IMG/VR virus record: IMGVR_UViG_2675903278_000002
Direction: 5' to 3' (one strand)
Source: a virus
Taxonomy: Duplodnaviria; Heunggongvirae; Uroviricota; Caudoviricetes
DNA length: 64,000 nt
The notes under the pieces are model-generated. The model was not told the origin of the DNA, searched no databases, and saw only the letters and a program-made list of their open reading frames with translations. Shown piece after piece: positions 19,880-34,371 of this stretch (position 1 is the stretch's first letter; every line of letters starts with the position of its first letter). The translations under genes were made by a program, and so were the position numbers.

Positions 19880-20146
19880 ATGTTGCATAGAGTTTTATGG
19901 AAAAGCGTTATTGTCGGCGCGATACTGGCTATATCTGGGTGTGCAATGGTGCAATACAACGACGGTGAAAAGGTAAGCATACAGTCAGATGGTTGGTATG
20001 GCCTGGATAGCCTGCAAAAAACCGCAGATAAAGCCTGTCAGCAATATGGGAAGTCTAAAGCAGTATATCAGCATAGCGCGAACGCTAACCCTAATCTTGC
20101 GCCCGGTTCGGGTGTTCAGAATACCATCTGGAAATGTGAGCCTTAA
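19880..20146 (+). CDS. putative lipoprotein
   Basis: ~88 aa; signal peptide with lipobox LAISGC; origin (phage or host) unresolved. Confidence 0.65.
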
Positions 20147-20148
20147 AT

Positions 20149-20400
20149 ATGAGCGACTGGAATATTGCAGCTAAAAGTCAGGAAGAACGGGATAAGGTTA
20201 ACGTTGATCTGGCTGCCAGCGGTGTGGCGTACAAAGAGCGATTGAACATACCTGTCATAGCTGAACAGGTAGCCCGCGAGCAACCAGAGAACCTGCGCAC
20301 CTATTTCATGGAACGGTTACGGCACTACCGGCAGTTAAGCCTCCAGTTGCCAAAAGGAAGCCATCCGGTGTATCAGAACGAGGATGCACCAAGAAAATAA
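20149..20400 (+). CDS. hypothetical protein
   Basis: 83 aa; ATG 2 nt after lipoprotein stop. Confidence 0.55.
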
Positions 20401-20776
20401 CGGCAAGATGGGGAAGACATTAAACATGCTTAACTATCACGACAACACGCGTTCTATGCAGACAATCCGCACCAATACAGCGGTGGTCGATAGCTTTCCT
20501 GTACATACTCAAGGCCGTGAAGATACCGTGGAAGTGCGACGCATGTTGTGTCGCCGGTCACCAGGCCACCAGCACTTCATCGTAACGTTTAAAAGCGATG
20601 TAGAGCGCGCCGAGAAAATCTCTAACTCCACATCTCTGGTTAGTCCGTTGGCGGAGGTTATTGTGCGCAACAATAAGGCGCGCTTTGTCCTTGAGGAGCA
20701 TCATTCTGATTTTAATGAAAAAATTGAGTCAAGCATTTTGCAATATATGAATGGCAAGTTCACGCCACCAATGTGA
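20384..20776 (+). CDS. hypothetical protein
   Basis: 130 aa ORF overlapping previous gene end; start uncertain (internal ATGs at ~20408, ~20426). Confidence 0.5.
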
Positions 20777-20837
20777 TTAGCCCCCAGCGTGGCGCGCCTG
20801 CAAACCCCGCTTTCACAAACTATGCCTTTTCAATGTA

Positions 20838-20857
20838 TACTGTATGAATAAACAGTA
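20838..20857 (+). promoter_or_regulatory. LexA (SOS) box
   Basis: TACTGTATGAATAAACAGTA: CTGT-N8-ACAG in AT-rich context, ~20 nt upstream of the UmuD'-like gene. Confidence 0.75.
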
Positions 20858-20875
20858 TCATTGAGGTAAAACGCT

Positions 20876-21265
20876 ATGGGCTTCCCTTCTCCTGCGGCGG
20901 ATTATGCAGAGAGCCGTATTTCTCTTGATCAGCAACTAATCAGACATCCTTCAGCGACCTACTTCATGCGGGCAGCTGATAGTCATCATCGTGAGGGAAT
21001 ATTACAGGGTGCATTGCTGGTGGTCGATTCCTCACTTACCCCGGTTGATGGTTCTCTGCTTGTATGCGCTCTGGATGGGGAATATCGCGTAAAAAGATAC
21101 CGGAAGTACCCACGTCAGCATCTGGAGGATTTAAGAACCGGTAAGAAGGAAGCATTGCCAAAGGATGACGATGGATGCACGGGCAGCAATGCCGTGTTTG
21201 GTGTGATCACTCACATTATCAACGACGCAAGAAGTGGCGAGTTTGATGATTGTCCCGTGATGTAG
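20876..21265 (+). CDS. UmuD'-like protein (S24 peptidase fold, lacks LexA-like N-terminal arm)
   Basis: 129 aa; begins GFPSPAADYAE...HPSATYF, i.e. where processed UmuD' begins; C-terminal ~35-aa extension. Confidence 0.8.
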   Translation: MGFPSPAADYAESRISLDQQLIRHPSATYFMRAADSHHREGILQGALLVVDSSLTPVDGSLLVCALDGEYRVKRYRKYPRQHLEDLRTGKKEALPKDDDGCTGSNAVFGVITHIINDARSGEFDDCPVM

Positions 21266-21277
21266 GAGAACTGATTA

Positions 21278-21301
21278 GGCGGTGCATTGCACCGCCTTTT
21301 T
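21278..21301 (+). terminator. rho-independent terminator
   Basis: GGCGGTGCA/TGCACCGCC hairpin followed by TTTTT, between the UmuD'-like gene and the convergent apbC stop. Confidence 0.7.
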
Positions 21302-21302
21302 A

Positions 21303-22403
21303 TCACACTGCGCGGAATGCGATTTCGCCAGGTATTACTTCACCTTGCCAATACATTTGGGCAGCAACGCGATCTGCGAGGTCACGATAAATAGCCGTAA
21401 ATTCGCTATCTGGACGACTAATAACGGTTGGTGTTCCGTTATCCAGATCTTCACGAAGAGAGATATGAAGTGGCATTTGGCCTAACAACTGCGTGTTGTA
21501 TTTCTCGGCCAGTTTCTGTGCGCCACCGGTGCCAAAAATTGGCTCGTGATGACCGCAGTTACTGCAAATATGCACACTCATGTTTTCGACGATACCCAGT
21601 ACCGGCACTTCGACTTTTTCGAACATCACAATGCCTTTCTTCGCATCGATCAGCGCGATGTCTTGCGGCGTAGTTACCACAACCGCACCAGTTACAGGAA
21701 TGTTCTGCGCCAGCGTCAACTGAATATCACCAGTGCCCGGCGGCATATCGAGAACGAGATAGTCCAGATCAGGCCATAGAGTTTCCTGCAACATCTGCAT
21801 CAGCGCCTTGCTGGCCATCGGTCCACGCCACACCATTGCATTGTCGTCGGTGACCAGATAACCAATAGAGTTGGTTGCCAGGCCATGAGACATGATAGGT
21901 GCCATGTGAGTACCGTCCGGTGAGGTTGGACGTTGGTTTTCCGCGCCCAGCATGGTTGGAATTGATGGACCATAGATATCGGCATCCAAAATACCAACTT
22001 TCGCACCTTCAGCAGCCAACGCCAGTGCCAGATTTACCGCCGTGGAGGATTTACCTACGCCGCCCTTGCCTGAGCTGACGGCGATAATGTTCTTAACGCC
22101 ATTAATGCCTGGTTGGTTTTTGACGCGCTTAAGCGTGGCAATGTTGTACGACAGCTTCCAGTCAATAGCCTTTGCGCCAGTGATACGGAGCAGATCACCA
22201 CTACATTGCTCTTTCAGGTCTTCAAAAGGCTTATTCCACACGAAAGGCATGATTAGTTCGACATGCAGTGTGTCATCCATCAACGCAACATGGTGTAACG
22301 CTTTAAGCGTAGTCAGGTTGTGTTTCAGGGTTGGGTGCTGAAAATTAGCCAGCGTACCGGCTACCATTGCTCTCAGGGCATCCGGCGATTTGGACTCGCT
22401 CAT
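21303..22403 (-). CDS. apbC: iron-sulfur cluster carrier ATPase ApbC/Mrp (host-type)
   Basis: 366 aa; deviant Walker A AVSSGKGGVGKSST, CSNCGHH motif; from recall, matches enterobacterial ApbC/Mrp closely along its length (not alignment-checked, unlike metG); divergent from metG as in E. coli. Confidence 0.95.
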   Translation of the reverse strand: MSESKSPDALRAMVAGTLANFQHPTLKHNLTTLKALHHVALMDDTLHVELIMPFVWNKPFEDLKEQCSGDLLRITGAKAIDWKLSYNIATLKRVKNQPGINGVKNIIAVSSGKGGVGKSSTAVNLALALAAEGAKVGILDADIYGPSIPTMLGAENQRPTSPDGTHMAPIMSHGLATNSIGYLVTDDNAMVWRGPMASKALMQMLQETLWPDLDYLVLDMPPGTGDIQLTLAQNIPVTGAVVVTTPQDIALIDAKKGIVMFEKVEVPVLGIVENMSVHICSNCGHHEPIFGTGGAQKLAEKYNTQLLGQMPLHISLREDLDNGTPTVISRPDSEFTAIYRDLADRVAAQMYWQGEVIPGEIAFRAV

Positions 22404-22560
22404 CCCGTCTCCTTTATTTTAATTTGCGCAATTGTCGCCTTGTAGTGTACTCCAGCTACGACATTTAATCATTTATGAGAAATGCTGTTATCACATGGCA
22501 GACATAAGGCCATTTTGTTACTATCAAGCCCCTTTTCACTACAAAGAAGTAATGCCTACT

Positions 22561-24594
22561 ATGACCCAAGTCGCGAAGAAAATTCTGGTGACGTGCGCGC
22601 TGCCGTACGCTAACGGCTCAATCCACCTCGGCCATATGCTGGAGCACATCCAGGCTGATGTCTGGGTTCGTTACCAGCGAATGCGCGGCCACGAGGTTAA
22701 TTTCATCTGTGCCGACGATGCCCACGGTACGCCGATCATGCTGAAAGCACAGCAGCTTGGTATCACACCGGAGCAGATGATTGGCGAAATGAGTCAGGAA
22801 CACCAGACTGATTTCGCAGGCTTTAACATCAGCTATGACAACTATCACTCGACGCACAGCGAAGAGAACCGTCAGTTGTCTGAGCTTATCTATACTCGCC
22901 TGAAAGAGAACGGTTTTATTAAAAACCGCACTATCTCTCAGTTGTACGACCCGGAAAAAGGCATGTTCCTGCCGGATCGTTTTGTAAAAGGCACCTGCCC
23001 GAAATGTAAAGCGCCAGATCAATACGGCGATAACTGTGAAGTCTGCGGCGCAACATATAGCCCGACTGAATTGATCGAGCCGAAATCGGTGGTTTCTGGC
23101 GCTACCCCGGTAATGCGTGATTCCGAACACTTCTTCTTTGATCTGCCTTCTTTCAGCGAAATGTTGCAGGCATGGACCCGCAGCGGCGCGTTGCAGGAGC
23201 AGGTGGCGAACAAAATGCAGGAATGGTTTGAATCCGGCCTGCAACAGTGGGATATCTCCCGAGATGCGCCTTACTTCGGTTTTGAAATTCCGAACGCGCC
23301 GGGCAAATATTTCTACGTCTGGCTGGACGCGCCGATTGGCTACATGGGTTCCTTCAAGAATCTGTGCGACAAGCGCGGCGATACCACCAGCTTCGATGAA
23401 TACTGGAAGAAAGACTCCACCGCCGAGCTGTACCACTTCATCGGTAAAGATATTGTTTACTTCCACAGCCTGTTCTGGCCTGCCATGCTGGAAGGCAGCA
23501 ACTTCCGCAAGCCGACCAACCTGTTTGTTCACGGCTATGTGACGGTGAACGGCGCGAAGATGTCCAAGTCTCGCGGCACCTTTATTAAAGCCAGCACCTG
23601 GCTGAATCATTTTGACGCCGACAGCCTGCGTTACTACTACACTGCGAAACTCTCTTCGCGCATTGATGATATCGATCTCAACCTGGAGGATTTCGTTCAG
23701 CGCGTGAATGCCGATATCGTGAACAAAGTGGTTAACCTGGCCTCCCGTAATGCAGGCTTTATCAACAAGCGTTTTGACGGCGTGCTGGCAAGCGAACTGG
23801 CTGACCCGCAACTGTACAAAACCTTTACTGATGCCGCTGAAGTGATTGGCGAAGCATGGGAAAGCCGCGAATTTGGTAAAGCTATCCGTGAAATCATGGC
23901 ATTGGCTGACCTGGCTAACCGCTATGTCGATGAACAGGCTCCGTGGGTGGTGGCGAAGCAGGAAGGACGCGATGCCGATCTGCAGGCGATTTGCTCTATG
24001 GGCATTAACCTGTTCCGCGTGCTGATGACGTACCTGAAGCCGGTACTGCCGAAACTGACTGAACGTGCAGAAGCATTCCTGAATACAGAACTGACCTGGG
24101 ATGGTATCCAGCAACCGCTGCTGGGCCATAAAGTAAATCCGTTCAAGGCACTGTATAACCGCATCGATATGAAGCAGGTTGAAGCACTGGTGGAAGCATC
24201 CAAAGAAGAAGTGAAAGCCACAGCCGCACCGGTAACTGGCCCACTGGCTGACGACCCGATTCAGGAAACTATCACCTTTGACGACTTCGCCAAAGTTGAC
24301 CTGCGCGTGGCGCTGATTGAAAACGCAGAGTTTGTAGAAGGTTCTGACAAACTGCTTCGCCTGACGCTGGATCTCGGTGGTGAAAAGCGTAATGTCTTCT
24401 CAGGCATCCGTTCCGCTTATCCAGATCCACAGGCACTGATTGGTCGTCACACCATTATGGTGGCTAACCTGGCACCACGTAAAATGCGCTTCGGTATCTC
24501 TGAAGGCATGGTGATGGCTGCTGGCCCCGGCGGGAAAGATATCTTCCTGTTAAGCCCGGATGCTGGTGCTAAACCTGGCCACCAGGTTAAGTAA
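22561..24594 (+). CDS. metG: methionyl-tRNA synthetase (host-type)
   Basis: Starts [31 protein letters not shown]..., KMSKS present, ends ...GAKPGHQVK; essentially the E. coli MetG sequence; track ORF 22432 begins upstream in frame, ATG 22561 is the conserved start. Confidence 0.96.
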
Positions 24595-24612
24595 TTAAAC
24601 AACCTCTCTTCG

Positions 24613-24641
24613 CAATGCCCGGCAACACGCCGGGCATTTTC
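24613..24641 (+). terminator. rho-independent terminator (metG)
   Basis: GCCCGGC-AACAC-GCCGGGC hairpin followed by ATTTT right after metG stop. Confidence 0.85.
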
Positions 24642-24677
24642 ATATAGACACAATCCCTTCTGATTTACACAGTACCT

Positions 24678-24692
24678 AAAACAATTTGTTTT
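24678..24692 (+). promoter_or_regulatory. class-A palindromic motif (first of a tandem pair)
   Basis: AAAACAATTTGTTTT followed by CTGCC, same as motif at ~29301. Confidence 0.6.
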
Positions 24693-24727
24693 CTGCCTTT
24701 TGTTGATGGAGATAATAAACCACATAA

Positions 24728-24743
24728 GAAAACAACTTGTTTT
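24728..24743 (+). promoter_or_regulatory. class-A palindromic motif
   Basis: GAAAACAACTTGTTTT immediately upstream of RBS GGAGTGG and ATG 24756. Confidence 0.6.
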
Positions 24744-24755
24744 GGAGTGGTTGAA

Positions 24756-25055
24756 ATGTTGAACATTACCCAAGCCTACCAGGTGGCATTGATCAGCTCA
24801 TCTCATACATCAGAGGAAGATGCTCGCCGATTCATGATCGCAAGCAATGAGCTGGATTGGGTTTCACAAATTGAGTACGGTTGCATTGTCCACGCCGGGT
24901 TACAGGACGATGACTGGAAAGATGAGTTGCGTCGATATGGTATATCCGAGGGCGCGATTGCGAACATTCAGAAAGTACTTGATGTAGGCTTTGACTCTGT
25001 ACATTTTGATTGTGGTGCACCGGTCGTTGAAGGGCTAGAGTGCTGGCAATGGTAA
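24756..25055 (+). CDS. hypothetical small protein
   Basis: ~99 aa; ATG with GGAG upstream, in frame with track ORF 24747 (GTG). Confidence 0.6.
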   Translation: MLNITQAYQVALISSSHTSEEDARRFMIASNELDWVSQIEYGCIVHAGLQDDDWKDELRRYGISEGAIANIQKVLDVGFDSVHFDCGAPVVEGLECWQW

Positions 25056-25091
25056 TCCGGCAATCGCTTCATACTAGACAACGGAGAATTT

Positions 25092-25277
25092 ATGCTTAAA
25101 GAAGACTCATATCTACTAAAGGCGCTTGAAATGCGTGGCGTTGAACCTACAGTGAAAAACGCTCACGATATCTACCTTCAGTTTTCACCGGAGCTGAAAC
25201 GGTTCATAAATCAATACGGGGTTAATGACTCAAGTGTTAAAGCAATGATAGATGATGAATTAGACCATCTCATCTAA
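25092..25277 (+). CDS. hypothetical small protein
   Basis: 61 aa; RBS GGAG 7 nt upstream. Confidence 0.5.
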   Translation: MLKEDSYLLKALEMRGVEPTVKNAHDIYLQFSPELKRFINQYGVNDSSVKAMIDDELDHLI

Positions 25278-25429
25278 TCGTTTCCTATGATAATGGTTTT
25301 CACTTTGAGATTGTTATTTTTCATAGCTAAAGCTGATGTTTGTGGAAGGTGGATTGATAAACGGATGCGTATTTAGGTTATACAAGTGAGAAAATTGATA
25401 ATATATAAACGCGATTTTTATGTGATGGA

Positions 25430-25999
25430 ATGGATGTGATGGAAACCCAGAACCAACAAACAAAACCTCTGAATAACATTTATGCGTGGATTCTAGCGTT
25501 CATGCCTTTCTTCTTTGGAGTATCGCCGGAAGAGTATACCAATTACGCTATTATAATTGGGGGTGTAACTACCATCGGTTTGTTAGTAGCTGACAGAATG
25601 GCTCTATCGGAGTCTGGCTGTGAACCACCTTCAATTCTATGGGGGGTATTCCTCCTGCCTGTCTATCTCTGGAAGCGCGCGACTATTACAAAAGGCAGCA
25701 GAGTGCCATTTATCATAATCGTTGCGTCGCTGGCTTGGATTATCTTCATCGGCATCCCACACAAGGACGAGGTTGCTCTTGAAGAAGCAGCCTGCCCTCT
25801 CGTGACAACTATTCTGAAAGAGAATAACGGTTCGACTGCACCAAAATGTATGAAGGTGACAATAGAGGACAAGGTGACGGATAAGTTCTATAGAGCAACG
25901 GCTACACTAGACAATGGTAATGACATTAACATTACTCTGGAACTTACCGGCGACAGGAACTTCTACGTCCGTGTTCCAAATGTTTATCTGAACAACTAA
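25430..25999 (+). CDS. putative inner-membrane protein
   Basis: 189 aa; three hydrophobic helices, then a soluble C-terminal domain. Confidence 0.6.
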   Translation: MDVMETQNQQTKPLNNIYAWILAFMPFFFGVSPEEYTNYAIIIGGVTTIGLLVADRMALSESGCEPPSILWGVFLLPVYLWKRATITKGSRVPFIIIVASLAWIIFIGIPHKDEVALEEAACPLVTTILKENNGSTAPKCMKVTIEDKVTDKFYRATATLDNGNDINITLELTGDRNFYVRVPNVYLNN

Positions 26000-26109
26000 C
26001 GGTTGCAACTTATTGATAATGGCGGTCACAATTTGATTCTTTTCTATAAGAACCCGTTGATCGCCACTACTCCCCTCCCATACCAGCAATCACATCATTA
26101 AATATCAAT

Positions 26110-26960
26110 AGGTTATGGTTGTTTATACAAATAAGAAAACAACTAAATAACAGATCAACGAAACGTCAACGCTTTCACCCGATTTGGTCTAAAAAATTGA
26201 CGTTTTCACACATCACTTCTTATACCCGTAACTCTACGCAGCAGACATCGCCACAGCGTCCAATTTTCACCACAGACGACCCAACACACTACCAACAAAA
26301 ACACACGCTCAAAATCGCTCCCGTTGCGTTACACAACCATATAAACAACTTATTTTCAGGCATAACAAAACAACTAAATAACACACATGCCATTTCCAAA
26401 AACAACCAACCTCTTTATGGCAGGCTACCGAAAAGACCCACCTCTTCTCCCCAGGCTACCGGACAACCAACCTAACTTTCACAGGCAATCCGAAAACATT
26501 CATACGCGCGATACCCACGACACGCCATTACCCAAACAGCGAAGAAACACCAGAATCACTGAACCCCCAACGAAGCCTGTAACCGCAAGGCTTCTCTCAA
26601 TCCCAAAAGACACGAAACAGAACAATCACGGGAAACGCCATTACCCAACACACGAATAACTACAAAAGCCCTTCACGCACTCCAGACAAACAACTCAAAC
26701 ACAATAACGAAAGGAATCGCCCACCTGCCATTACTCCATACACGGAGAAGAACAATCACCAAAACGACGAGAACACCCCATAGAAGAACCACCGCAAAAC
26801 GAACGAAACCACATACACCGACAGAGAGAACAACACACCCAATTCACCAACAGAATTAGTCGCCGTATAGAACGTTCTGGAAGGAGTGAGTGTTAACGTC
26901 CATAGAGAGGTTGAGACAGATAAAACACGAATAAAACACAACATGTATAGCGAAGAAGCC
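26110..26960 (+). ncRNA. candidate non-coding transcript, A+C-rich and G-poor on the + strand
   Basis: ~0.85 kb strongly depleted in G and T; starts after a class-A-like half motif (AAGAAAACAACTAAATAACA, repeated ~240 nt in); ends at hairpin+T terminator ~26983-27007; ORFs here are low-complexity. Confidence 0.35.
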
Positions 26961-26982
26961 AGGTATGTATAAGTGGGGAGAG

Positions 26983-27007
26983 AAGGAGGGGTGTCGCCTC
27001 CTTTTTC
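26983..27007 (+). terminator. rho-independent terminator
   Basis: GGAGG-GGTGTCG-CCTCC followed by TTTTT. Confidence 0.65.
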
Positions 27008-27059
27008 GTATTTATTCAACTCCTGATTTTACCCCCCGTAACACCCCTACGGTCAGCCT

Positions 27060-27210
27060 TCGGTCCATACAGGGAAAAGGCTGCATCCCGCTACAGAAAC
27101 GGCTGGGTTGCCTTCGGGGAACGGCTGGAGGTTTTCAGGGAAACGGTCGAGTTGCCTGTGTGGATTTCGGGAAAAGGCTCGATGCCGGTTCAGGAACGGT
27201 GGCGTACCGG
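27060..27210. repeat. array of short iterated repeats (GGGAAAmGGCT-like), ~6 copies at ~20-30 nt spacing
   Basis: CAGGGAAAAGGCTG, CAGAAACGGCTGG, GGGGAACGGCTGG, CAGGGAAACGGTCG, CGGGAAAAGGCTCG, CAGGAACGGTGGCG in series; related array at ~31085-31260. Confidence 0.6.
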
Positions 27211-27535
27211 TATAGCGTGAGGGAGAGTTGCGGCTGTCCACCTGTAATGTGCGGGAAGAAGAGAGGCGCTCACGTGCAGGCGAACTTACTTACCGCTGGA
27301 TTCCCTCTGAATGCCCAGCTACAGCGTAATTGTGCCAGACAGTCAGCGGGTCACAATCGATTTCAGTAGGTTTTCGGGGAGAAGAAAATTCTGCCCACCA
27401 GCCCTGCGGCGCGCGTAGAGCAGAATATCGTAAATACTGGTTCCGTGTCGTTCCCGGATACTCACTACCCAGCCTGGCTTTCCCGACATAAAATCCTTTT
27501 CCGCCTTTGTCTTATTGCGATAATAACACCAACAA

Positions 27536-27552
27536 GTAAACAACATGTTTAG
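27536..27552 (+). promoter_or_regulatory. class-A palindromic motif
   Basis: GTAAACAACATGTTTAG preceded by CGATAATAACACCAACAAG box, upstream of ATG 27583. Confidence 0.6.
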
Positions 27553-27582
27553 ACGTTATATAAACGAAGTGAGGATGAAGAG

Positions 27583-27801
27583 ATGATTAAGATGCCTGTG
27601 ACGGTTGAGGTGTGGGGCGTGGATTCCCTGGCTGAGTGTCTGGATGCAGTGGGGCCGGAGTTGTACCGCAAGTTGTGGTCGTTCGTCCCGGCAGAAGGGG
27701 AATCGCCCAAAGGGAAGGATATCTGGCACCTGCTGAGTGAAGATGAAAAGCGGGAGCTGGTGGACGCGGTACACAGCGAGTTCCCGGGCGACGAAGATTA
27801 A
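27583..27801 (+). CDS. hypothetical small acidic protein
   Basis: 72 aa; RBS GAGGATGAAGAG; terminator follows. Confidence 0.6.
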   Translation: MIKMPVTVEVWGVDSLAECLDAVGPELYRKLWSFVPAEGESPKGKDIWHLLSEDEKRELVDAVHSEFPGDED

Positions 27802-27806
27802 GAGTG

Positions 27807-27830
27807 AGGCCACCAGCACGGTGGCTTTTG
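27807..27830 (+). terminator. rho-independent terminator (GGCCACC...GGTGGC family)
   Basis: GCCACC-AGCAC-GGTGGC hairpin followed by TTTTG. Confidence 0.7.
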
Positions 27831-27912
27831 TCGCTATTAACCTCCGGGCAGCGCAGCACCGTAACGATATACTTTGTGGCCGTTTTCTTACTGGTATTGT
27901 TTACGCAATTCA

Positions 27913-27930
27913 GAAAACAACATGTTTAAG
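27913..27930 (+). promoter_or_regulatory. class-A palindromic motif
   Basis: GAAAACAACATGTTTAAG; ~35 nt upstream sequence nearly identical to that before the motif at ~28396. Confidence 0.6.
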
Positions 27931-27939
27931 GATTGCGTT

Positions 27940-28269
27940 ATGTTTGCAAATATCGACATCAACCAAATCAAGAAAATGACTCAAAAAGAGTTTGACCAGT
28001 TTTATGAGTTAGAAGGTTGGTCTTCCACTCTGATCAATTCGCGGTGGGTGCTTGAGCTGATGACTCGTGATGACGCACCTGCTTTGATGATTTGCGACAT
28101 GGGTGAAGATGCTGACTTTATGGATATGAGCGAATTTTGTGTGGACACATACAACCGCAGCCAGAAGTACTACTTCACATGCGATAGCGAAAATGACGTG
28201 ATTTCTAAGGTCTATCTTCACCTCGTCCAGCATTGGGACGTTCAGGAGTTTCTTGAAGTATTCGAGTAA
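27940..28269 (+). CDS. hypothetical small acidic protein
   Basis: ~109 aa from ATG 27940 (AAGGA upstream), in frame with track ORF 27874; terminator follows. Confidence 0.6.
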   Translation: MFANIDINQIKKMTQKEFDQFYELEGWSSTLINSRWVLELMTRDDAPALMICDMGEDADFMDMSEFCVDTYNRSQKYYFTCDSENDVISKVYLHLVQHWDVQEFLEVFE

Positions 28270-28277
28270 CCCCAACC

Positions 28278-28303
28278 AAAGCCAGCATTGCTGGCTTAAT
28301 TTC
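28278..28303 (+). terminator. rho-independent terminator
   Basis: AAGCCAGC-ATT-GCTGGCTT hairpin then AATTTC. Confidence 0.65.
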
Positions 28304-28395
28304 TCTATAGCCGCAGGGAAGAACCTGCATATCGCTCATGCACCTGATCAATATGCTTTGTAGCCGTTTTCTTACTGGTATTATTTACGCCATTG

Positions 28396-28412
28396 AGAAA
28401 ACAAGTTGTTTA
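28396..28412 (+). promoter_or_regulatory. class-A palindromic motif
   Basis: GAAAACAAGTTGTTTAC upstream of RBS GGAG and ATG 28423. Confidence 0.6.
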
Positions 28413-28422
28413 CGGAGTTGTG

Positions 28423-28734
28423 ATGAAAAAATCATTGGTTCTTGGTCTGGACAAAGACCAGAAGAGAAAAGAGAAGCCTGCGCTGGTTGCTCAATTAACT
28501 TTGCTGGACATCGTTGCCAATGGAACCTCTATTCGTCTGTTCCGTGAAACAGCGGTGTCTTTCGATAAAAACACCTTTACTCGTTATGTAATGAATGTTC
28601 GTCGCCAGCGTGGAAAAGGCTGGGTGGCATTTCAAAGAATGTGGCCGGAACATCAGCTCGAACTGGCTTTGATGGAAGTTAACCGCGTGGCCCAGCAAGA
28701 GATTCAGAGAGCATCAGTGATGGCAATAGCCTGA
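28423..28734 (+). CDS. hypothetical small basic protein
   Basis: ~103 aa from ATG 28423, in frame with track ORF 28393; terminator follows. Confidence 0.6.
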   Translation: MKKSLVLGLDKDQKRKEKPALVAQLTLLDIVANGTSIRLFRETAVSFDKNTFTRYVMNVRRQRGKGWVAFQRMWPEHQLELALMEVNRVAQQEIQRASVMAIA

Positions 28735-28767
28735 TAATGTGCAAGTGGTAATTAGTCGACAGTACGA

Positions 28768-28797
28768 CAGCCCCGCCATCCTTACGGGGCTTTTTTG
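28768..28797 (+). terminator. rho-independent terminator
   Basis: GCCCCG-CCATCCTTA-CGGGGC hairpin followed by TTTTTT. Confidence 0.8.
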
Positions 28798-28860
28798 TAT
28801 TGTAAGTACATACTTATGATCATAGAATATAAAAATAACCAAAACACTACGGAGAGTGAA

Positions 28861-29256
28861 ATGACCGTTAAACGCGAAAAACTGACAGTTGATGTTTACT
28901 ATGCCTCTGAAACCGCCGAAGGTAAGAATGTGGCAAAAATCACCGTTGTTACGTACAACACCGAAACTGGTGCCGAAGTCCAGGCCAGTACGATCGTGCG
29001 TAAAGGTGATGCCTCCGACGGCGAGTACGCGACTCAATACCAGTCCATTCTCGATGCAACTGACCCGCTGCTGCTGAAAATCGAGAACTACTTCCGCCAG
29101 GTTGATGAAGAGGTGTTTGAAACCATGATGAATATGGTTAACACCGTATTCGCCTCCAACCTGAATACCAACACTACCTGGATTGGTCAGTACGGCCTGC
29201 GCATTACCTCTGGCATTCCTGCCGACACCTTAATCCCTGAAAGCGTATTCGCTTAA
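28861..29256 (+). CDS. hypothetical protein
   Basis: ~131 aa from ATG 28861 (GGAGAG upstream), in frame with track ORF 28795; terminator follows. Confidence 0.6.
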   Translation: MTVKREKLTVDVYYASETAEGKNVAKITVVTYNTETGAEVQASTIVRKGDASDGEYATQYQSILDATDPLLLKIENYFRQVDEEVFETMMNMVNTVFASNLNTNTTWIGQYGLRITSGIPADTLIPESVFA

Positions 29257-29263
29257 TCCTCTT

Positions 29264-29293
29264 TAAATGGCGCGTAAACCGCGCCATTTTCTT
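29264..29293 (+). terminator. rho-independent terminator
   Basis: AATGGCGCG-TAAAC-CGCGCCATT hairpin followed by TTCTT. Confidence 0.75.
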
Positions 29294-29300
29294 ATGCCCG

Positions 29301-29318
29301 ATAACAATTTGTTTTCTG
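29301..29318 (+). promoter_or_regulatory. class-A palindromic motif
   Basis: ATAACAATTTGTTTTCTG, same variant as at ~24678. Confidence 0.6.
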
Positions 29319-29373
29319 CCTTATCTGATTTGTGAAAATGATTTCACTGAAGCAACTTAATAAGGAAACCATC

Positions 29374-29748
29374 ATGGGACTTGATATCTATATCGAGACA
29401 CAGCCTAAAAACGATCTGAATAACGAGGCATCCAGAAAGCAGGTTGCTTACTTCCGTAAGTTCAATGCGCTCGTTGGGTGGATGGAGCGCAACGTAGGTG
29501 AAGTCGAAAATTGTGAGCTTTTAGAATTAACGATGAATGACATTTGTTTTCTGAAGGCTCATTTGATGCACATAAACGAAAGTAATTGCGAAGAGTACTT
29601 GCCTACCCGGGAAGGTTTTTTCTTCGGCAGTCAGGAGTACGATGAAGGTTACTGGCATGATGTGGGGCAGTTGAAAGAGCTTGTGGAAGATCTGATTAAG
29701 AACCACGACTTTCACAATAACAGACTGACCTTCTGCGCCTGGTGGTAA
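29374..29748 (+). CDS. hypothetical protein
   Basis: ~124 aa from ATG 29374 (AAGGAAACC upstream), in frame with track ORF 29332. Confidence 0.6.
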   Translation: MGLDIYIETQPKNDLNNEASRKQVAYFRKFNALVGWMERNVGEVENCELLELTMNDICFLKAHLMHINESNCEEYLPTREGFFFGSQEYDEGYWHDVGQLKELVEDLIKNHDFHNNRLTFCAWW

Positions 29749-29750
29749 AT

Positions 29751-29894
29751 ATGGGCGATTTCAAGAAACGCCTGAAGGAAAGAGCCGAGATGGTCAGAAA
29801 GCAAAACGCCTCTTCTGTCATCAGATACGCAAGGCAGTTTAGTCGCAACAACAAATCAGTTGAGGAAAAGATCCTTAGCGTAATCGGTCGATAA
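29751..29894 (+). CDS. hypothetical small basic protein (47 aa)
   Basis: ATG 2 nt after previous stop; product MGDFKKRLKERAEMVRKQ...; below track cutoff. Confidence 0.35.
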   Translation: MGDFKKRLKERAEMVRKQNASSVIRYARQFSRNNKSVEEKILSVIGR

Positions 29895-29900
29895 TTATTA

Positions 29901-29925
29901 AGGCCACCAGCATTGGTGGTCTTAA
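29901..29925 (+). terminator. terminator-like hairpin (GGCCACCA...TGGTGG family)
   Basis: AAGGCCACCAGCATTGGTGGTCTT; near-identical hairpin at ~30373. Confidence 0.55.
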
Positions 29926-30049
29926 ATGACTTTTAATAACCGAAGGTTAGTTTGAAACCTGGCTATCAACTTCCAGAACCTTTCTTGTGTATTCAGCCTG
30001 TATTAACTTCTTTTATGCCTTATCTACACTGCGATAATTACACCAACAA

Positions 30050-30067
30050 GAAAACAACATGTTTACG
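30050..30067 (+). promoter_or_regulatory. class-A palindromic motif
   Basis: AGAAAACAACATGTTTAC preceded by GCGATAATTACACCAACAAG box. Confidence 0.6.
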
Positions 30068-30077
30068 CAGTGAGGAT

Positions 30078-30365
30078 ATGCTCATGACTGATTTCACCAT
30101 TACCCCTAAAGCACAAAATGTATTTCTTGAATCATGGCTGGACTTGCCGGAAACAGAACAGCAAGAAATGGATCATGTGGATTATGACGAGCAGGTAAGC
30201 ACGCGATTCTTCCACTTTGAGGGATGCGTTTACGACATTGCTGACTTCATGCGAGATGACCGCTTCCCTGAATGGCACGCCAGTTATCCACTAAACGCCT
30301 TTGCCATGCTGATGATCCGTGTGGATGATTCAGGGGATACCATCGACATCGGTCTGCTCCACTAA
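30078..30365 (+). CDS. hypothetical small acidic protein
   Basis: ~95 aa from ATG 30078 (GTGAGGAT upstream), in frame with track ORF 29952. Confidence 0.55.
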   Translation: MLMTDFTITPKAQNVFLESWLDLPETEQQEMDHVDYDEQVSTRFFHFEGCVYDIADFMRDDRFPEWHASYPLNAFAMLMIRVDDSGDTIDIGLLH

Positions 30366-30370
30366 AGATT

Positions 30371-30396
30371 AAGGCCACCAATGCTGGTGGCCTTAA
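30371..30396 (+). terminator. terminator-like hairpin
   Basis: AAGGCCACCA-ATGC-TGGTGGCCTT, perfect 8-bp stem, then AAATG. Confidence 0.55.
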
Positions 30397-30534
30397 ATGA
30401 CCATCCTGTTTCCCGCAGGCTAAAAACACCAACCTCTTACCTCCAGGCAACCGACAAACCCACCTGTTCCCGTCCGGCTACCGCAACTTTCCACTTTGAC
30501 GCCTTATTCGTACAACGATAATTAACACCAACAA

Positions 30535-30555
30535 GAAAACAATTTGTTATTTACG
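30535..30555 (+). promoter_or_regulatory. class-A palindromic motif
   Basis: AGAAAACAATTTGTTATTTAC preceded by ACGATAATTAACACCAACAAG box. Confidence 0.6.
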
Positions 30556-30569
30556 ATAAGGAATTAATC

Positions 30570-31052
30570 ATGAATTTTATCGCTACTGTAAACGCACCCG
30601 CACATGGCAATATCGCTGTAACGTTCTCTGACATTGAAAAACGAGTACTTGGTGCATGGCGCGACAATGAGACGGTAGAACTGTCAGCACAAGAAAAATG
30701 CATTATTGCACGCGACATCATTGGCAATCGTCGTTACTCGCGGGTATTTGAGAAAGCGTATGTGGTAAATTCTGGGTTCGGAACGTTCGTCTTTCCGGTG
30801 CGCTCCGGGCGATTCTGCCAGTCCAAGCTGATTGAGTTCGCTACGCAGATTTCTGTCTGGATTAAAACTCAATCGTCGTTCAAATTTTCCGACGATGAAG
30901 CAGTATCGCAGGGGATGCGGATCGCCAACAATGCGATTAAATGCAAAAACATTACGTATACCGCTGGCGTTGATACATGGAAACTGTTTTGCGCTAACTT
31001 TATGCTGAATGTATACGCAAGCAACCGCATCCACATCCTTGATGGCGTGTAA
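30570..31052 (+). CDS. hypothetical protein
   Basis: 160 aa; RBS AAGGAATTAATC; hairpin terminator follows. Confidence 0.65.
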   Translation: MNFIATVNAPAHGNIAVTFSDIEKRVLGAWRDNETVELSAQEKCIIARDIIGNRRYSRVFEKAYVVNSGFGTFVFPVRSGRFCQSKLIEFATQISVWIKTQSSFKFSDDEAVSQGMRIANNAIKCKNITYTAGVDTWKLFCANFMLNVYASNRIHILDGV

Positions 31053-31055
31053 CTG

Positions 31056-31083
31056 AGAAGAGGGCCAGAAACGGCCCTTTCTC
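31056..31083 (+). terminator. rho-independent terminator
   Basis: AGGGCC-AGAAAC-GGCCCT hairpin followed by TTCTC. Confidence 0.7.
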
Positions 31084-31084
31084 T

Positions 31085-31260
31085 ATAGCCACCAGCTGCC
31101 GCAGGGAAATTTTCAGAAACGGCGAGGAACGTATTCATAAGCCGACGGGAAACGGCCAGGATTTTTTCGGGAAACGGCTGCATTCGCCTTTATGTAGAAA
31201 AAAACATCGGGAAGCTGGTGGAATCCAACCAGCGGTTGTCGGACAGGCGAGCGGGGAAAA
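31085..31260. repeat. second array of GGGAAACGG-like iterated repeats
   Basis: GCAGGGAAATT, CAGAAACGGCG, GACGGGAAACGGCC, TCGGGAAACGGCTG, ATCGGGAAGCTGG, GCGGGGAAAATT; begins with CTCTATAGCC box also seen after the terminator at ~28303. Confidence 0.6.
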
Positions 31261-31289
31261 TTATGATGACTTTCGTCGCCTGAGACATC

Positions 31290-31360
31290 CAGATTTCTTT
31301 CGTAGCATAATCACATACGTGATTAAGTGGTGTGATTATGTGAAAAATCACGCGCACATA
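31290..31360. promoter_or_regulatory. cluster of TCACA/TGTGA half-site palindromes
   Basis: AATCACATACGTGATT, GTGTGATTATGTGA, AATCACGCGCACATAAT within ~70 nt of AT-rich non-coding DNA. Confidence 0.35.
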
Positions 31361-31635
31361 ATACGCGAGCGGATACGGAACAAAACAAAATGCCGATCCG
31401 CGCCGACAAATAAACGCGGATCACATAGCAAGAATAAAAGCCAATGATTAGCCATACGTTATAGCGCAATATAACGCATTTTAAGCGCGTTAATGTGCTA
31501 AGTAATGGGTATGTACTGGTAAGGATATAAAAGCGCGTCTATGGCGTTATTTTGGCGCTTATTTTTATGTTGTTGGAGTGAGTTAAAGACAATAAAAAAC
31601 GCGCCATCATTGGCGCGCTATGGTGGGAGTATTGG

Positions 31636-31662
31636 AAACGAAAAAAGCGCCCATAGTGGGCG
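31636..31662 (-). terminator. rho-independent terminator for minus-strand cassette
   Basis: AAGCGCCCATAGTGGGCGCT hairpin with A-run on + strand; same 20-nt hairpin in inverse orientation at ~32139. Confidence 0.65.
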
Positions 31663-31669
31663 CTCGATT

Positions 31670-31900
31670 TTATTTGTGTAAACTGATTTTAAATCCCATT
31701 TCTACAAACGCTTTTAACATTAAAAATATATCAGCGTCGTTGATTCCAATATCCGAACGCTCAATATCATTTAATAAATCAATTTTACGCGTTGTTTCAT
31801 CGATAAACTCGACTGAGCGCCCAGCGTAACCAGCGATCCCAGCGATGCGATTAACAAAATATTCATTGCGCACGTTAACGCCAGCGATAAGAACAAACAT
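31670..31900 (-). CDS. hypothetical small protein
   Basis: 76 aa; minus-strand AAGGAG RBS 7 nt before ATG; AT-richer than flanking DNA by eye. Confidence 0.55.
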   Translation of the reverse strand: MFVLIAGVNVRNEYFVNRIAGIAGYAGRSVEFIDETTRKIDLLNDIERSDIGINDADIFLMLKAFVEMGFKISLHK

Positions 31901-31921
31901 GATAAAGCTCCTTAAAAAAAA

Positions 31922-32125
31922 TTAAATAGAATTTTGAAGTTTTCCGATTAATGCGCTTAAACGTAAGTATTCACGTTTGCGCTTGCAATCTCGCTTGCTG
32001 TTGAGCAAATCAGAAAACGTAAAATTTAATTGGTCGCGTTGCGCGATCAAATCATCGATTAATTCCAGTTTATAAGCGCGATACTTTGCGCGATATTCCG
32101 CGCGGATCTTGTCATAGCTGACCAT
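31922..32125 (-). CDS. hypothetical small basic protein
   Basis: ~67 aa from internal Met (MVSYDKIRAEY...) of track ORF 31922..32170, with AAGGAG RBS. Confidence 0.5.
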   Translation of the reverse strand: MVSYDKIRAEYRAKYRAYKLELIDDLIAQRDQLNFTFSDLLNSKRDCKRKREYLRLSALIGKLQNSI

Positions 32126-32138
32126 TTTTAAAGCTCCT

Positions 32139-32162
32139 TTAAAGCGCCCACTATGGGCGCTT
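32139..32162 (-). terminator. intercistronic hairpin (attenuator-like)
   Basis: AAGCGCCCACTATGGGCGCTT between the 216-aa gene stop and the next RBS. Confidence 0.5.
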
Positions 32163-32173
32163 GATTCCATTAA

Positions 32174-32824
32174 TTACGCTTTGAAAGCATCAGCTAAATA
32201 ATTGTAGAAATCATTTTTAATGAAGCGATATTGCTGAGTACCAGCTTTCGCGCTCCCAGCTCCTTTGACTTTTTCAACAAGTCCAAGACGTTCGCAAAGA
32301 TTGATCAACTGGTTGGCTTGAGTATAGCCAGCGTCCAATTTAATTTCGCACGCTTTTTTCGCTTCATTCATTAAATCGAAAACAGCGCCATTGGTGAACG
32401 TGTCGATCTCGTCGTTAATCATATCGATTAATGCGAATACACGAGATCCGGACATATCAGCGACGGAATAAACACACTTTCCAGCTTTAATGGATTTAAC
32501 CAGATAAACCAGTTTTTCCAGAGAATAACTATTAGTCATTGCATCACGGAAAAATACTTCTGGCGCTTGTTTGCTTGCTTTGATCGCATAGTAGAAAACA
32601 GAGCACAATTTTTCGTCTTCTACAGCGTTTACAACGTTGTTGATGAAGTAAGCAAGTTTAGTGGTTGCAGCTTGCATATTTGCTTTGTCTGCTTTGGTGT
32701 GCGTGCCATTTTTATAATGTTCGTTATATGTTTGAGTTGCCAGATCTGCTTTTTCGCGCAGTTCATCGGATACAATGGAAGCAGCTTCAATGATGGATTT
32801 TTTAGAAATGATAATGTTAGCCAT
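32174..32824 (-). CDS. hypothetical protein (216 aa)
   Basis: Long minus-strand ORF, AT-richer by eye, AT-rich promoter-like region upstream (32825-33070); no recognisable domain. Confidence 0.7.
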   Translation of the reverse strand: MANIIISKKSIIEAASIVSDELREKADLATQTYNEHYKNGTHTKADKANMQAATTKLAYFINNVVNAVEDEKLCSVFYYAIKASKQAPEVFFRDAMTNSYSLEKLVYLVKSIKAGKCVYSVADMSGSRVFALIDMINDEIDTFTNGAVFDLMNEAKKACEIKLDAGYTQANQLINLCERLGLVEKVKGAGSAKAGTQQYRFIKNDFYNYLADAFKA

Positions 32825-33069
32825 GATAATTTTTCCTTATGTAAATTTAAAATTTATTGTCGTTAGCGTCTTCGCTTTCGACGAGTTCAATTATCGATAT
32901 GCGAAAAAAGATTGCAAGTGTTTTTTTTAAATTTTTTGCAGGGATGAAAGTCCTAGAAATAAAAGCGAGATCGTCGAAGGTGTTCCCTAAATAAATAATT
33001 GATTGCGGCTTTAGACCTTATATATATTTAGGTTATTTGATTTGTAGATATAAAGAAGTGATGTGAAAA

Positions 33070-33098
33070 ATAATAACCGGACTTAGCCGGTTATTAAC
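33070..33098. terminator. bidirectional hairpin terminator
   Basis: AATAACCGG-ACTTAG-CCGGTTATT between the two minus-strand cassettes. Confidence 0.6.
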
Positions 33099-33107
33099 CT
33101 TATAGAT

Positions 33108-33416
33108 TTATTGAACAGACTCTACAGCCTTACGATTGGTGTCAAATAGCGCATCAACGAACTGTGCCGATGACTCGCTAGATTCGCAATCCAACATTGC
33201 CCGTTCTTCATTTGCCACTTTCTTACACAGTTCCACATTCTCACCTATCGCTTTTCCTGCTTTTACGGCTGCCGAAAATTGATACATGCAAACTGATACA
33301 TTCTGAGACGTTGAGCACACGTCATTCATCAGCGACTGAATGACAGGCTTATAGTCCATTGCATTTGCCGCAACTGAGCAAAGTAAAAATAATGGTGGTA
33401 ACAATATCGATTTCAT
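33108..33416 (-). CDS. putative secreted/periplasmic small protein
   Basis: 102 aa; N-terminal signal peptide MKSILLPPLFLLCSVAANA; several Cys. Confidence 0.6.
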   Translation of the reverse strand: MKSILLPPLFLLCSVAANAMDYKPVIQSLMNDVCSTSQNVSVCMYQFSAAVKAGKAIGENVELCKKVANEERAMLDCESSESSAQFVDALFDTNRKAVESVQ

Positions 33417-33419
33417 AAC

Positions 33420-33944
33420 TCAAAAAGGCAAAATTCGTTCAACCCAATCGAACAAAACAACTATTTTTCTACCGTTCTCGACACGTAGTGTAACCTGACA
33501 AGCATCTGCGCCTGCTGACACCCCCTCAATTTCACGGCCATCCGCCATGTACACCCTTATAGATTTGTTTGCTTTGTAGGCTTGGTTGCAAATTGCAAAA
33601 AAATCGCGGCGTGATGGCCGATTATCGACATAATCAGGGTGAACTGTTAGTCGACCTTTGAAATCGTGAGCGATACTGTCAACCACACCTGATTCAATTG
33701 TACTAATGCGTTCAAGTGGGAGCCTTATACGATTTTCTTTGTCAAAAGGGGCTGGGCAAAGGTCAACTTTGTTACGAGATGGCATGAGGCCATAAACGTA
33801 CATGCAAAACGCCTGGCCATCTTCGAGAGTGACCCTTACAGGAATTTGTTCTCTGCGCCAGAACATCAGTAGTTTTTCAACGTTAGTGTAATCTCGCGGC
33901 CAGAGTTCAGCTTGGATACCGTAGGTAATATCTTTGGTTGTCAT
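33420..33944 (-). CDS. hypothetical protein
   Basis: ~174 aa from internal Met (MTTKDITYG...) of track ORF 33420..34022; ATG 1 nt after the upstream lipoprotein gene stop. Confidence 0.55.
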   Translation of the reverse strand: MTTKDITYGIQAELWPRDYTNVEKLLMFWRREQIPVRVTLEDGQAFCMYVYGLMPSRNKVDLCPAPFDKENRIRLPLERISTIESGVVDSIAHDFKGRLTVHPDYVDNRPSRRDFFAICNQAYKANKSIRVYMADGREIEGVSAGADACQVTLRVENGRKIVVLFDWVERILPF

Positions 33945-33948
33945 ATCA

Positions 33949-34371
33949 TCACAGAGTTGTTGGCAGAATGTCGATGTCACCAGAATTGCTGGTAAACACC
34001 CTGAACGCTTTTGTGTCTCCATTCTTCAGAGTCGTTTCTCGCTCTTGACGAGCGGGGTTTAGAGCACATAAACCTGCACCTTCAAGAGATGCACCCACAA
34101 TTAATTCTCCGGCATTTAAATGGAAAGTCGCTTTTTCGCCTGTAGCCAGTTTTGCGACAGTTTCGCCGTTGATGAAAATGGAAGCATCACATCCAGCTCC
34201 TACAAAACCTGTGTCTCTCATTACCACCAACGTAGCTGGCGCTGCGCTTTGATACTTGAACACTTTGGCCTGCGGTGCTGGTTTGGCGTCATGGATTGAT
34301 ATTGGGTGTGATTGGCACGCGGCAAGCATCAACACTGGTAACGTTAGTAGAGGGAGAAGCGAGTATTTCAT
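33949..34371 (-). CDS. putative lipoprotein (candidate superinfection-exclusion protein)
   Basis: ~140 aa from internal Met (MKYSLLPLLTLPVLMLAACQ...); lipobox LAAC; function inferred by analogy. Confidence 0.6.
   Translation of the reverse strand: MKYSLLPLLTLPVLMLAACQSHPISIHDAKPAPQAKVFKYQSAAPATLVVMRDTGFVGAGCDASIFINGETVAKLATGEKATFHLNAGELIVGASLEGAGLCALNPARQERETTLKNGDTKAFRVFTSNSGDIDILPTTL

Follow-up and report, generated by a model that had tools for sequence, protein, structure and literature searches.

We report here on an A/C-rich stretch at positions 26110-27007 of a 64,000-nucleotide Caudoviricetes sequence (IMG/VR record IMGVR_UViG_2675903278_000002; the whole of it, read on the + strand, is referred to as the window), which its plasmid and phage matches show to be an SSU5-like phage-plasmid. 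The stretch is very probably part of a functional non-coding element, and this element probably acts as a + strand RNA. We tentatively favour the view that the stretch constitutes, in SSU5-like phage-plasmids, the body of a conserved transcription unit that does not code for protein and yields, under operator control and in the lytic cycle, an unfolded, multivalent decoy RNA of ~0.8 kb, for which Rho would be the best-fitting ligand; the involvement of Rho, be it in cis or in trans, is in itself somewhat doubtful. We infer the transcription of the element, its direction, its action in trans and the role of Rho as ligand.

An A/C-rich body unique in the window

Between 26110 and 26870 the + strand consists of 39.3% A, 31.7% C, 12.9% G and 16.2% T (71% A+C), and its core (26230-26860) of 40% A, 34% C, 12.5% G and 13.6% T. 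When the 64 kb were examined in 700-nt windows, both the maximum of A+C (72.4%) and the minimum of G (11.7%) fell in this stretch, which lies ~7 standard deviations (sd) from the mean A+C content of 49.9% (sd 3.1%), with nothing else beyond 3 sd; its GC content is 44-48%. The sliding-window profile bears out the preliminary description, made from the sequence alone, of an A+C-rich, G/T-depleted stretch beginning at ~26110, but not its extent to ~26960: the body stops at ~26870, positions 26871-26980 are purine/G-rich, and the unit as a whole is larger, from about 26020 to 27260. In the body proper (26230-26870), whose composition is kept in all homologues, the C/G ratio is 2-3.4 throughout (2.0-3.4 in each 78-nt window between 26150 and 26850), and YC dinucleotides reach 14-16 per 100 nt vs 9.8 window-wide (1.5-fold).

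The three internal repeat pairs mentioned in that description were all located. AAACAACTAAATAACA occurs at 26137 and 26368; ACGCCATTACCCAA at 26521 and 26634, with a third copy, GCCATTAC, at 26727; and CAGGCTACCG at 26421 and 26452, within three tandem C-rich 31-nt units of the form (A)CC(C/A)ACCTCTT-N5-CAGGCTACCG (26400-26491). Only these 31-nt units are tandem, and a tandem-repeat origin for the body was rejected. Dispersed copies of GCCATTAC(C/T)(C/T)(C/A)A start at 26524, 26637 and 26727 (26524-26734), and other clades possess up to six of them. Across six divergent bodies, GCCAT is found 3-5 times per body (26 observed vs 3.5 expected) and CAGGC 2-5 times (20 observed vs 4.1 expected), always in a single orientation and with irregular spacing. 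Two extra C-rich 31-nt units (ACCTCTT-N5-CAGGCTACCG) lie at 30431-30483, flanked by a hairpin without a U-tract (30371-30394) and by a TTGACG -35 hexamer (30497); they stand upstream of a promoter, unlike the units of the body, which stand downstream of one, and several relatives likewise possess a second site with 31-nt units ~3.4 kb from the first.

Conservation of composition, length and flanks

The element is found in 839 plasmid records of one collection, where, genus by genus, its count agrees with the one obtained for terminase (Enterobacter 90 vs 91, Salmonella 49 vs 49, Citrobacter 25 vs 25, Cronobacter 9 vs 10, Shigella 7 vs 7); surplus records in Klebsiella and E. coli are, at least in part, truncated copies within larger plasmids. 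It is syntenic throughout the SSU5-like phage-plasmids of enterobacteria, with essentially no exception. Between E. coli and SSU5 the element shows ~68% identity, which is within the range of the flanking genes (67-90%). In a six-clade alignment 331 of the 700 body columns (47%) are invariant, while the 369 variable columns are still 64% A+C. A/C exchanges are the commonest among the variable body columns (79 vs 63 A/G and 57 C/T); in the adjoining G-rich segment transitions dominate, as usual. Polarised within-clade polymorphisms revealed equal per-site rates of change from A/C to G/T and from G/T to A/C. With mutation balanced in this way the A/C bias would decay, and its persistence therefore needs selection.

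The preliminary description had proposed a search for similar G-poor tracts in related phages. A set of 80 loci surrounding homologues of the adjacent DEAD-box helicase was retrieved and screened for A+C bias on one strand, and an A/C tract was found at the syntenic place in most of the loci that reach far enough past the helicase; a few full-length loci lack it. The tract is present in six of the eight loci whose helicase is just 70-82% identical; BLAST detects hardly any resemblance between their bodies and that of this window, and the body there measures 650-800 nt and contains 65-74% A+C. These six loci also retain an inverted repeat centred on TTTCTATAAG, the motif ATAAGAAAACAAC as a full palindrome (AAACAACTTGTTT), an inverted GTCAA...TTGAC pair, TTGAC(A/T)-17 nt-TTATAC, the G-rich tail, the landmark TCGC...ATTCAA, the GGRAAMGG repeats and the promoter of the next gene. 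Hence composition, length and flanks are conserved beyond sequence, because distant relatives keep all three without similarity in the body.

Coding potential and predicted structure

The stretch is non-coding, because indels of 1, 8, 13 and 20 nt between clades (besides a length of 15 nt) break the frame and the longest open reading frames (ORFs) change frame and position from clade to clade, because the period-3 power is 1.44 as against 2.4-14 for neighbouring genes, and because no ORF within 26119-27369 matched a PHROG family. The 118-aa and 90-aa ORFs of the + strand are indeed of low complexity, as described before, and a conserved coding frame, which would speak against a non-coding stretch, was sought across clades and not found. 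Coding was rejected on the same grounds for either strand, including a hydrophobic-looking 87-aa minus-strand ORF. Using tblastn and blastn we found no similarity to window-encoded proteins; the only similarity was that of the class-A promoter described below, which ruled out a decayed paralogue of a neighbouring gene. Logan contigs containing the 90-aa ORF turned out to be assembly-graph fragments and are uninformative on transcripts.

No Rfam family matched the stretch at E <= 1 when 20000-34000 was searched. For the + strand body RNA a minimum free energy (MFE) of -73.4 kcal/mol per 641 nt was predicted (z = -1.3 vs shuffles), which agrees with the earlier expectation that a G-depleted RNA would be largely unstructured; the complementary strand reaches -165 kcal/mol, likewise no better than its shuffles. 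Consensus folds are weak (-30.5 for the body, -15 for the G-rich part), and a stable or conserved RNA structure was therefore rejected for either strand on the basis of MFE and consensus folding. Two particular candidates also failed: the UNCG-loop variation at 27045-27070 does not behave as a conserved helix, and distant base-pairing between the G-rich tail and the C-rich units is not conserved, reaching <=8 nt in any clade.

Promoter-like and operator-like signals

The left edge of the conserved non-coding module is an invariant alignment block at 26021-26065, in which the inverted repeat GGCGGTCA / TGATCGCC surrounds an invariant TTTCTATAAG (26041-26050); in distant clades an inverted repeat surrounds the same TTTCTATAAG with different arms, e.g., TCAACCTCTC / GAGAGGTTGA in locus L205. 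It is followed by the operator-like half site ATAAGAAAACAAC-TAAATAACA (26131-26152), the left part of what in distant relatives is the full palindrome mentioned above. The class-A-like half site that had been noticed at the 5' end is real: it represents the left half of a motif whose full palindrome precedes many small genes. Further downstream, the inverted repeat GAAACGTCAA ... TTGACGTTTTC (26160-26207), conserved in all clades, contains within its right arm the -35 hexamer of a promoter-like site at 26197-26226, composed of TTGACG (26197-26202), a 17-nt spacer and TTATAC/TATACC (26220-26226), with a predicted start at ~26233. In three deep clades the -35 hexamer reads TTGACG, TTGACA or TTGATC, and the 17-nt spacing is constant while the sequence of the spacer varies, as would be expected of a real promoter. 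The preliminary description had the stretch bracketed by promoter-like and terminator-like signals; both are present and point in the same direction, but the site at 26197-26226 is a second and better promoter-like site beside the half site that it had named.

Within the 5' part of the body, the operator-like palindrome AAACAACTTATTT is followed by the half site ATAACAAAACAACTAAATAACA (26343-26383); the palindrome is a perfect AAACAAnTTGTTT in other clades, and the same pair of palindrome and half site is located mid-body in loci L205 and L208. In total, the non-coding unit holds one palindrome (26343), two left halves (26131, 26362) and one inverted repeat of another type (26160-26207). Against an expectation of 0.43, the window contains 15 copies of the 13-bp palindrome AAACAAnTTGTTT (2319, 12541, 13270, 17811, 24679, 24730, 26343, 27538, 27915, 28399, 29302, 30052, 30537, 39654 and 39679), usually preceded by ATAAGA or ACAAGA, and usually situated 10-35 nt 5' of the ribosome-binding site of a small gene, just past a -10 element such as TGCGATAAT. 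It precedes more than 10 small early genes of unknown function, and two copies lie in or next to the non-coding unit. Thus distributed, AAACAAnTTGTTT looks like the putative operator of a phage-wide early regulon. All regulatory signals of the unit are oriented rightwards, into the body. We also considered the body as an array of class-A half-operators acting as a titration sink, and rejected this, as the enrichment is confined to the 5' 400 nt. The full class-A promoter/operator, TGCGATAAT-N-ACACCAACAAGTAAACAACATGTTTAG (27516-27552, + strand), belongs to the next gene (27583-27801) and marks the right edge of the gene-free gap.

The 3' end of the unit

The body passes into a purine/G-rich, C-poor tail (26871-26979) with 26-38% G in all clades, which in this window carries a clade-specific 40-nt insert (~26915-26955). 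The terminator proposed for the 3' end was found at 26980-27006, where the hairpin GAGAAGGAGG...CCTCCTTTTT forms 10 pairs and is followed by the T-run TTTTTCGTATTTATT; in this window the signal has the arrangement of an intrinsic terminator, a GC-rich hairpin directly before a U-tract. Beyond it lies the invariant landmark ATTCAA...TTTT...CCCGTAAC (27014-27045), and the distance from the -10-like hexamer to its ATTCAA is 779-871 nt in seven clades. The next feature is a G-rich array at 27072-27200, made up of about six units of ~22 nt (GGRAAMGG(C)) whose copy number differs among clades; a paralogous array is found 4 kb away (31095-31180). A terminator-like hairpin precedes each array (by ~65 nt and ~12 nt, respectively), and the conserved core of the units is GAAAMGG. 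The arrays may be iteron-like protein-binding sites, or else C-rich rut sites for leftward transcripts.

Expression in lysogens and the pMT1 deletion

In a study of strain LF82 (PMC9928086, supplementary S1 table), CYRAN_103, an ORF that the annotation of phage Cyrano places over the element's first half, is at the floor in vitro and low in macrophages, with the upstream gene CYRAN_102 at log2 6-9 in the same table. Lysogen expression thus falls more than 10-fold from CYRAN_102 to CYRAN_103, and the element is silent in lysogens; this silence fits operator control and says nothing of transcription at other times.

In Y. pestis pMT1 (locus L129, 37884-38751) an IS1541 copy and a deletion are found exactly at the element, and the syntenic half that remains has no A/C-rich tract. 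The deletion also removes neighbouring early genes, while the two genes to the right in window orientation, homologues of window 30084-31052, are kept. Since pMT1 exists without the element, the latter is dispensable for plasmid replication and partition; pMT1, a relative, is not reported to produce phage.

Genomic setting

In 243 complete E. coli genomes the region is matched by plasmids, with identities reaching 99.6%, and never by chromosomes; further matches were obtained with the phages Cyrano, PhiR41_1 and CMS-2020a, with Klebsiella phage-plasmids and with Salmonella phage SSU5 (70%). The window is therefore an SSU5-like phage-plasmid. In the closest plasmid, NZ_CP029421.1, repA lies ~27 kb from the element, and terminase and structural genes begin ~13 kb downstream of it. 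PGAP called no genes between window positions 26000 and 27582, and a gene-free gap of 1.4-1.9 kb exists at the same place in RefSeq plasmids of E. coli, Enterobacter, Cronobacter and Klebsiella, with no feature annotated in it by PGAP in all five RefSeq plasmids examined; the GenBank records of phages Cyrano and SSU5 place hypothetical ORFs onto the element. It is the largest conserved gene-free piece within the early region of SSU5-like phage-plasmids.

In these phage-plasmids, resistance and defence cargo adjoins the element. A variable cargo spot is located directly upstream, at 20800-25999 of the window and at matching positions in loci L002 and L004-L007. In this window it contains apbC, a full-length metG (methionyl-tRNA synthetase), which is unusual on a phage-plasmid, and three small unknown genes; in relatives it contains type I restriction-modification and DUF262 genes, a GIY-YIG nuclease, the lysozyme inhibitor Ivy and others. 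Also upstream of the element, a 61-aa ORF (25092-25277) gave a non-significant, sub-threshold Pfam match to the T7 gp5.9 RecBCD inhibitor (E 0.006; 16.9 bits vs a cut-off of 24.5). The Chi sequence GCTGGTGG occurs 22 times in the 64 kb vs 1.5 expected (12 copies on the + and 10 on the - strand; e.g., 27395-27402(-), 30383-30390(+) and 31089-31096(-)), with some copies inside intergenic hairpins, and the Chi-bearing segment downstream of the element was found again in several clades. This enrichment suggests selection for protection from RecBCD. Finally, a weak Rfam match to Hrs1 at 31591-31657 (28 bits, E 0.048, well under the gathering score) sits in a convergent intergenic region with two hairpin-plus-T-run terminators and probably reflects merely these terminators.

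Discussion

Our analyses point to a function in single-stranded nucleic acid, because the compositional bias concerns one strand only and is maintained at positions that are otherwise free to vary. Given the promoter-like site, the operators shared with early genes, the single orientation of the repeated motifs and the terminal hairpin, a regulated + strand RNA is the simplest reading. The protein-sponge or decoy RNA suggested in the preliminary description agrees with this anatomy, since short motifs repeated in accessible RNA, together with a regulated promoter, are typical of sponge RNAs. Among possible partners Rho is favoured, because its binding rules coincide with the properties under selection: rut sites are C-rich, G-poor, unstructured and untranslated, and span at least 60-80 nt, and the body presents a C/G ratio above 1 (2.0-3.4) in an untranslated stretch with little predicted structure. 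We therefore propose the following scheme. In the lysogen, the promoter-like site at 26197-26226, flanked by copies of the early-gene palindrome, would be held off; once this control is lifted on induction or infection, the promoter would fire and deliver a + strand RNA of ~0.8 kb (~26233 to ~27006). Nearly devoid of G and U, such an RNA would not pair with itself and would offer a long, permanently single-stranded, C-rich platform with several copies of GCCAUUAC and CAGGCU. Acting in trans, it could then capture at its many sites a factor with affinity for single-stranded RNA. Rho best fits the selected properties, and its titration by such a multivalent decoy would lift the repression that keeps the phage's numerous short early transcription units silent.

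Several observations weigh against this scheme. Rho accounts for neither the A-richness, the depletion of U nor the sequence-specific repeated motifs, and because these remain unexplained by Rho the real partner may be some other protein. A C/YC periodicity of 11-13 nt, a signature of Rho, was looked for in the body and is absent. Moreover, RNA bound by Rho is translocated and released, and an effective titration would need very high RNA levels. Our literature search turned up no phage RNA that titrates Rho, and no such RNA is known. The expression data found, all from lysogens, show no transcript of the region above the floor. A consensus promoter scan called nothing at the promoter-like site, whose -10-like hexamer ends in C instead of the canonical T; and the terminal hairpin is found in every clade, but a good U-tract follows it only in the E. 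coli and Klebsiella clades, that of SSU5-type and distant clades being weak.

The element resembles known kinds of regulatory regions and RNAs, mainly rut regions and sponge RNAs, but its size sets it apart from them, as does the fact that what is conserved is its composition and length. Like the rut regions of lambda tR1 and of the P4 timm leader terminator, it is C-rich, G-poor, untranslated, predicted to be unstructured and situated in a phage regulatory region past a promoter. Unlike these regions of roughly 80-100 nt, however, it extends over ~650-800 nt, is A-rich and U-poor, keeps its length, and has repeated motifs, a dedicated operator-flanked promoter-like site and a terminal hairpin; its dependence on Rho is putative. 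With CsrB/CsrC/RsmZ (sponges of CsrA) and CrcZ (Hfq/Crc) it shares the non-coding nature, a short motif repeated in accessible RNA, conservation of the motif copies instead of the overall sequence, and, as a prediction, its own regulated promoter and terminator; in contrast to them its RNA is predicted to be unfolded rather than a series of hairpins, is 2-3 times longer, is silent in the lysogen and has no Rfam match. A sponge for CsrA itself was rejected, since the number of GGA motifs in the body equals the expectation from composition (a hand estimate), the G-rich core is GAAAMGG and not GGA, and Rfam gave no match; so was an A-R-N sponge for Hfq, with three (ARN)x3 runs vs 5.6 expected and no (ARN)x4 run vs 1.2 expected. 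Like the prophage-encoded anti-sRNAs AgvB and AsxR and the GcvB sponge SroC, the element resides on a mobile element and is rich in C and A, so that pairing with a G/U-rich seed is conceivable, but those RNAs are short, have a single defined site of mimicry and are made in lysogens, whereas this element is lysogen-silent and its pairing with GcvB is at chance for its composition. Similarly to P4 ori/crr and to iteron origins, a phage and plasmid element here displays two direct-repeat clusters ~4 kb apart (27072-27200 and 31095-31180) by a promoter; however, these repeats do not resemble the RepA iterons of this plasmid, an initiator gene is missing from their neighbourhood, and such origins show nothing comparable to the A/C bias on one strand of the body.

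This last resemblance bears on another explanation, unlikely in our view, according to which the element acts in cis as DNA for lytic replication: the G-rich arrays would be iterons bound by an initiator, the promoter would activate the origin by transcription, and the body, in which neither strand folds, would be a zone of unwinding, helicase loading or priming. The ~22-bp G-rich units recur at about two helical turns, differ in copy number among clades and form two paralogous arrays, and the 31-nt units correspond to three helical turns. The phage-plasmid also encodes replisome parts of its own, among them RNase HI, a Pol III alpha subunit and a DnaB-like helicase; since the plasmid origin lies elsewhere with unrelated iterons, one would expect lytic replication to have an origin of its own; and the element is lost in pMT1, which is not reported to produce phage. 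Nevertheless, binding sites in double-stranded DNA give no reason for a one-strand A/C bias over 650-800 bp or for the A/C exchanges, there is no AT-rich unwinding element (GC 44-48%), no global skew switch occurs at the element and no initiator gene adjoins it; in addition, + strand transcription yields a G-poor RNA and so disfavours R-loops. The plasmid origin itself was rejected as a candidate, since the RepA iterons (CTCTCTATAGTGGAT, 21-bp spacing) flank repA ~27 kb away and are unrelated in sequence, and pMT1 replicates without the element. Resemblances to P1-type parS, chromosomal parS, IHF, DnaA, sigma-54, boxA/nut and attC sites, judged by eye, are not conserved across clades.

Rho could also act solely in cis, which we regard as distinctly unlikely, with the element as an oversized Rho-dependent terminator or insulator: untranslated C-rich transcripts coming from the cargo genes would load Rho and be halted before the early lytic genes, the G-rich part doing likewise for leftward transcripts. 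The C/G ratio of 2-3.4 along 700 nt, the lack, in this window, of an intrinsic terminator ahead of the body and past the upstream gene, the more than 10-fold drop from CYRAN_102 to CYRAN_103 in lysogens, the variable cargo upstream (metG/apbC, restriction-modification, DUF262, GIY-YIG, Ivy) and the C-rich units located 3' of a gene with a U-tract-less hairpin (30371-30483) are all in line with it. However, an operator-flanked promoter-like site of the element's own, conserved, faces the body, length and repeated motifs are conserved, and the element is ~8 times longer than known rut sites. Moreover, members of the Klebsiella clade retain the element in full although their upstream gene lies on the opposite strand, directed away from it, so that it is not there just to handle read-through. 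It is improbable that the element is a sponge for the G/U-rich seed of a regulatory RNA of the GcvB type, or a decoy substrate for sequence-specific endoribonuclease toxins such as the ACA-cutting MazF. GcvB targets C/A-rich elements, which prophage anti-sRNAs (antagonists of small RNAs) such as AgvB mimic, the body is C/A-rich and predicted to be single-stranded, and the related Cyrano has several toxin-antitoxin genes; yet R1 of GcvB (the sequence used matches in all 5426 E. coli genomes) forms duplexes with the body that are energetically no better than those with shuffled bodies or with other segments of the window, a long site of conserved complementarity was not detected, and expression is absent in lysogens, where the known anti-sRNAs act. 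Finally, it is highly improbable that the stretch is a functionless relic in decay, left by a gene or by promoter cassettes that had been duplicated; the preliminary description had considered a degenerate remnant equally possible. Degenerate copies of the class-A promoter-leader in the 5' part and the hypothetical ORFs of some database records would agree with such a relic, but it is contradicted by synteny, by the 47% of columns invariant over six clades (with ~68% identity, akin to the 67-90% of the flanking genes), by the survival of composition, length and flanks in relatives that lack sequence similarity, by the absence of similarity to window-encoded proteins and by a mutation input that would erode the A/C bias.

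Returning to the decoy RNA, a more far-reaching form of the proposal, which we put forward as speculation and deem rather unlikely, would be that of a long early-lytic RNA kept free of G and U by selection, which inactivates by titration a host machine binding single-stranded RNA, most likely Rho, and so ends the silencing of phage transcription by the host. It would be the RNA counterpart of P4 Psu and would represent a class of functional RNA that is conserved in composition and length and not in sequence or structure. The element is undescribed in the literature that we searched; a preprint on phage-plasmid copy number deals with another family.

SSU5-like phage-plasmids are very common in Klebsiella, E. 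coli, Enterobacter and Salmonella, and one collection alone holds more than 800 plasmids with the element. If it is an RNA whose function indeed rests on the inability to fold, it would show that a functional bacterial RNA may be conserved in nothing but its composition and length, and structure-based RNA searches miss such elements. The decoy RNA would then provide a direct handle on the escape from Rho-mediated or other host control at the lytic switch; if the element is instead a lytic origin, the missing cis element of the family would have been located. Either way, the 13-bp palindrome defines around it a testable regulon for the switch between lysis and lysogeny.

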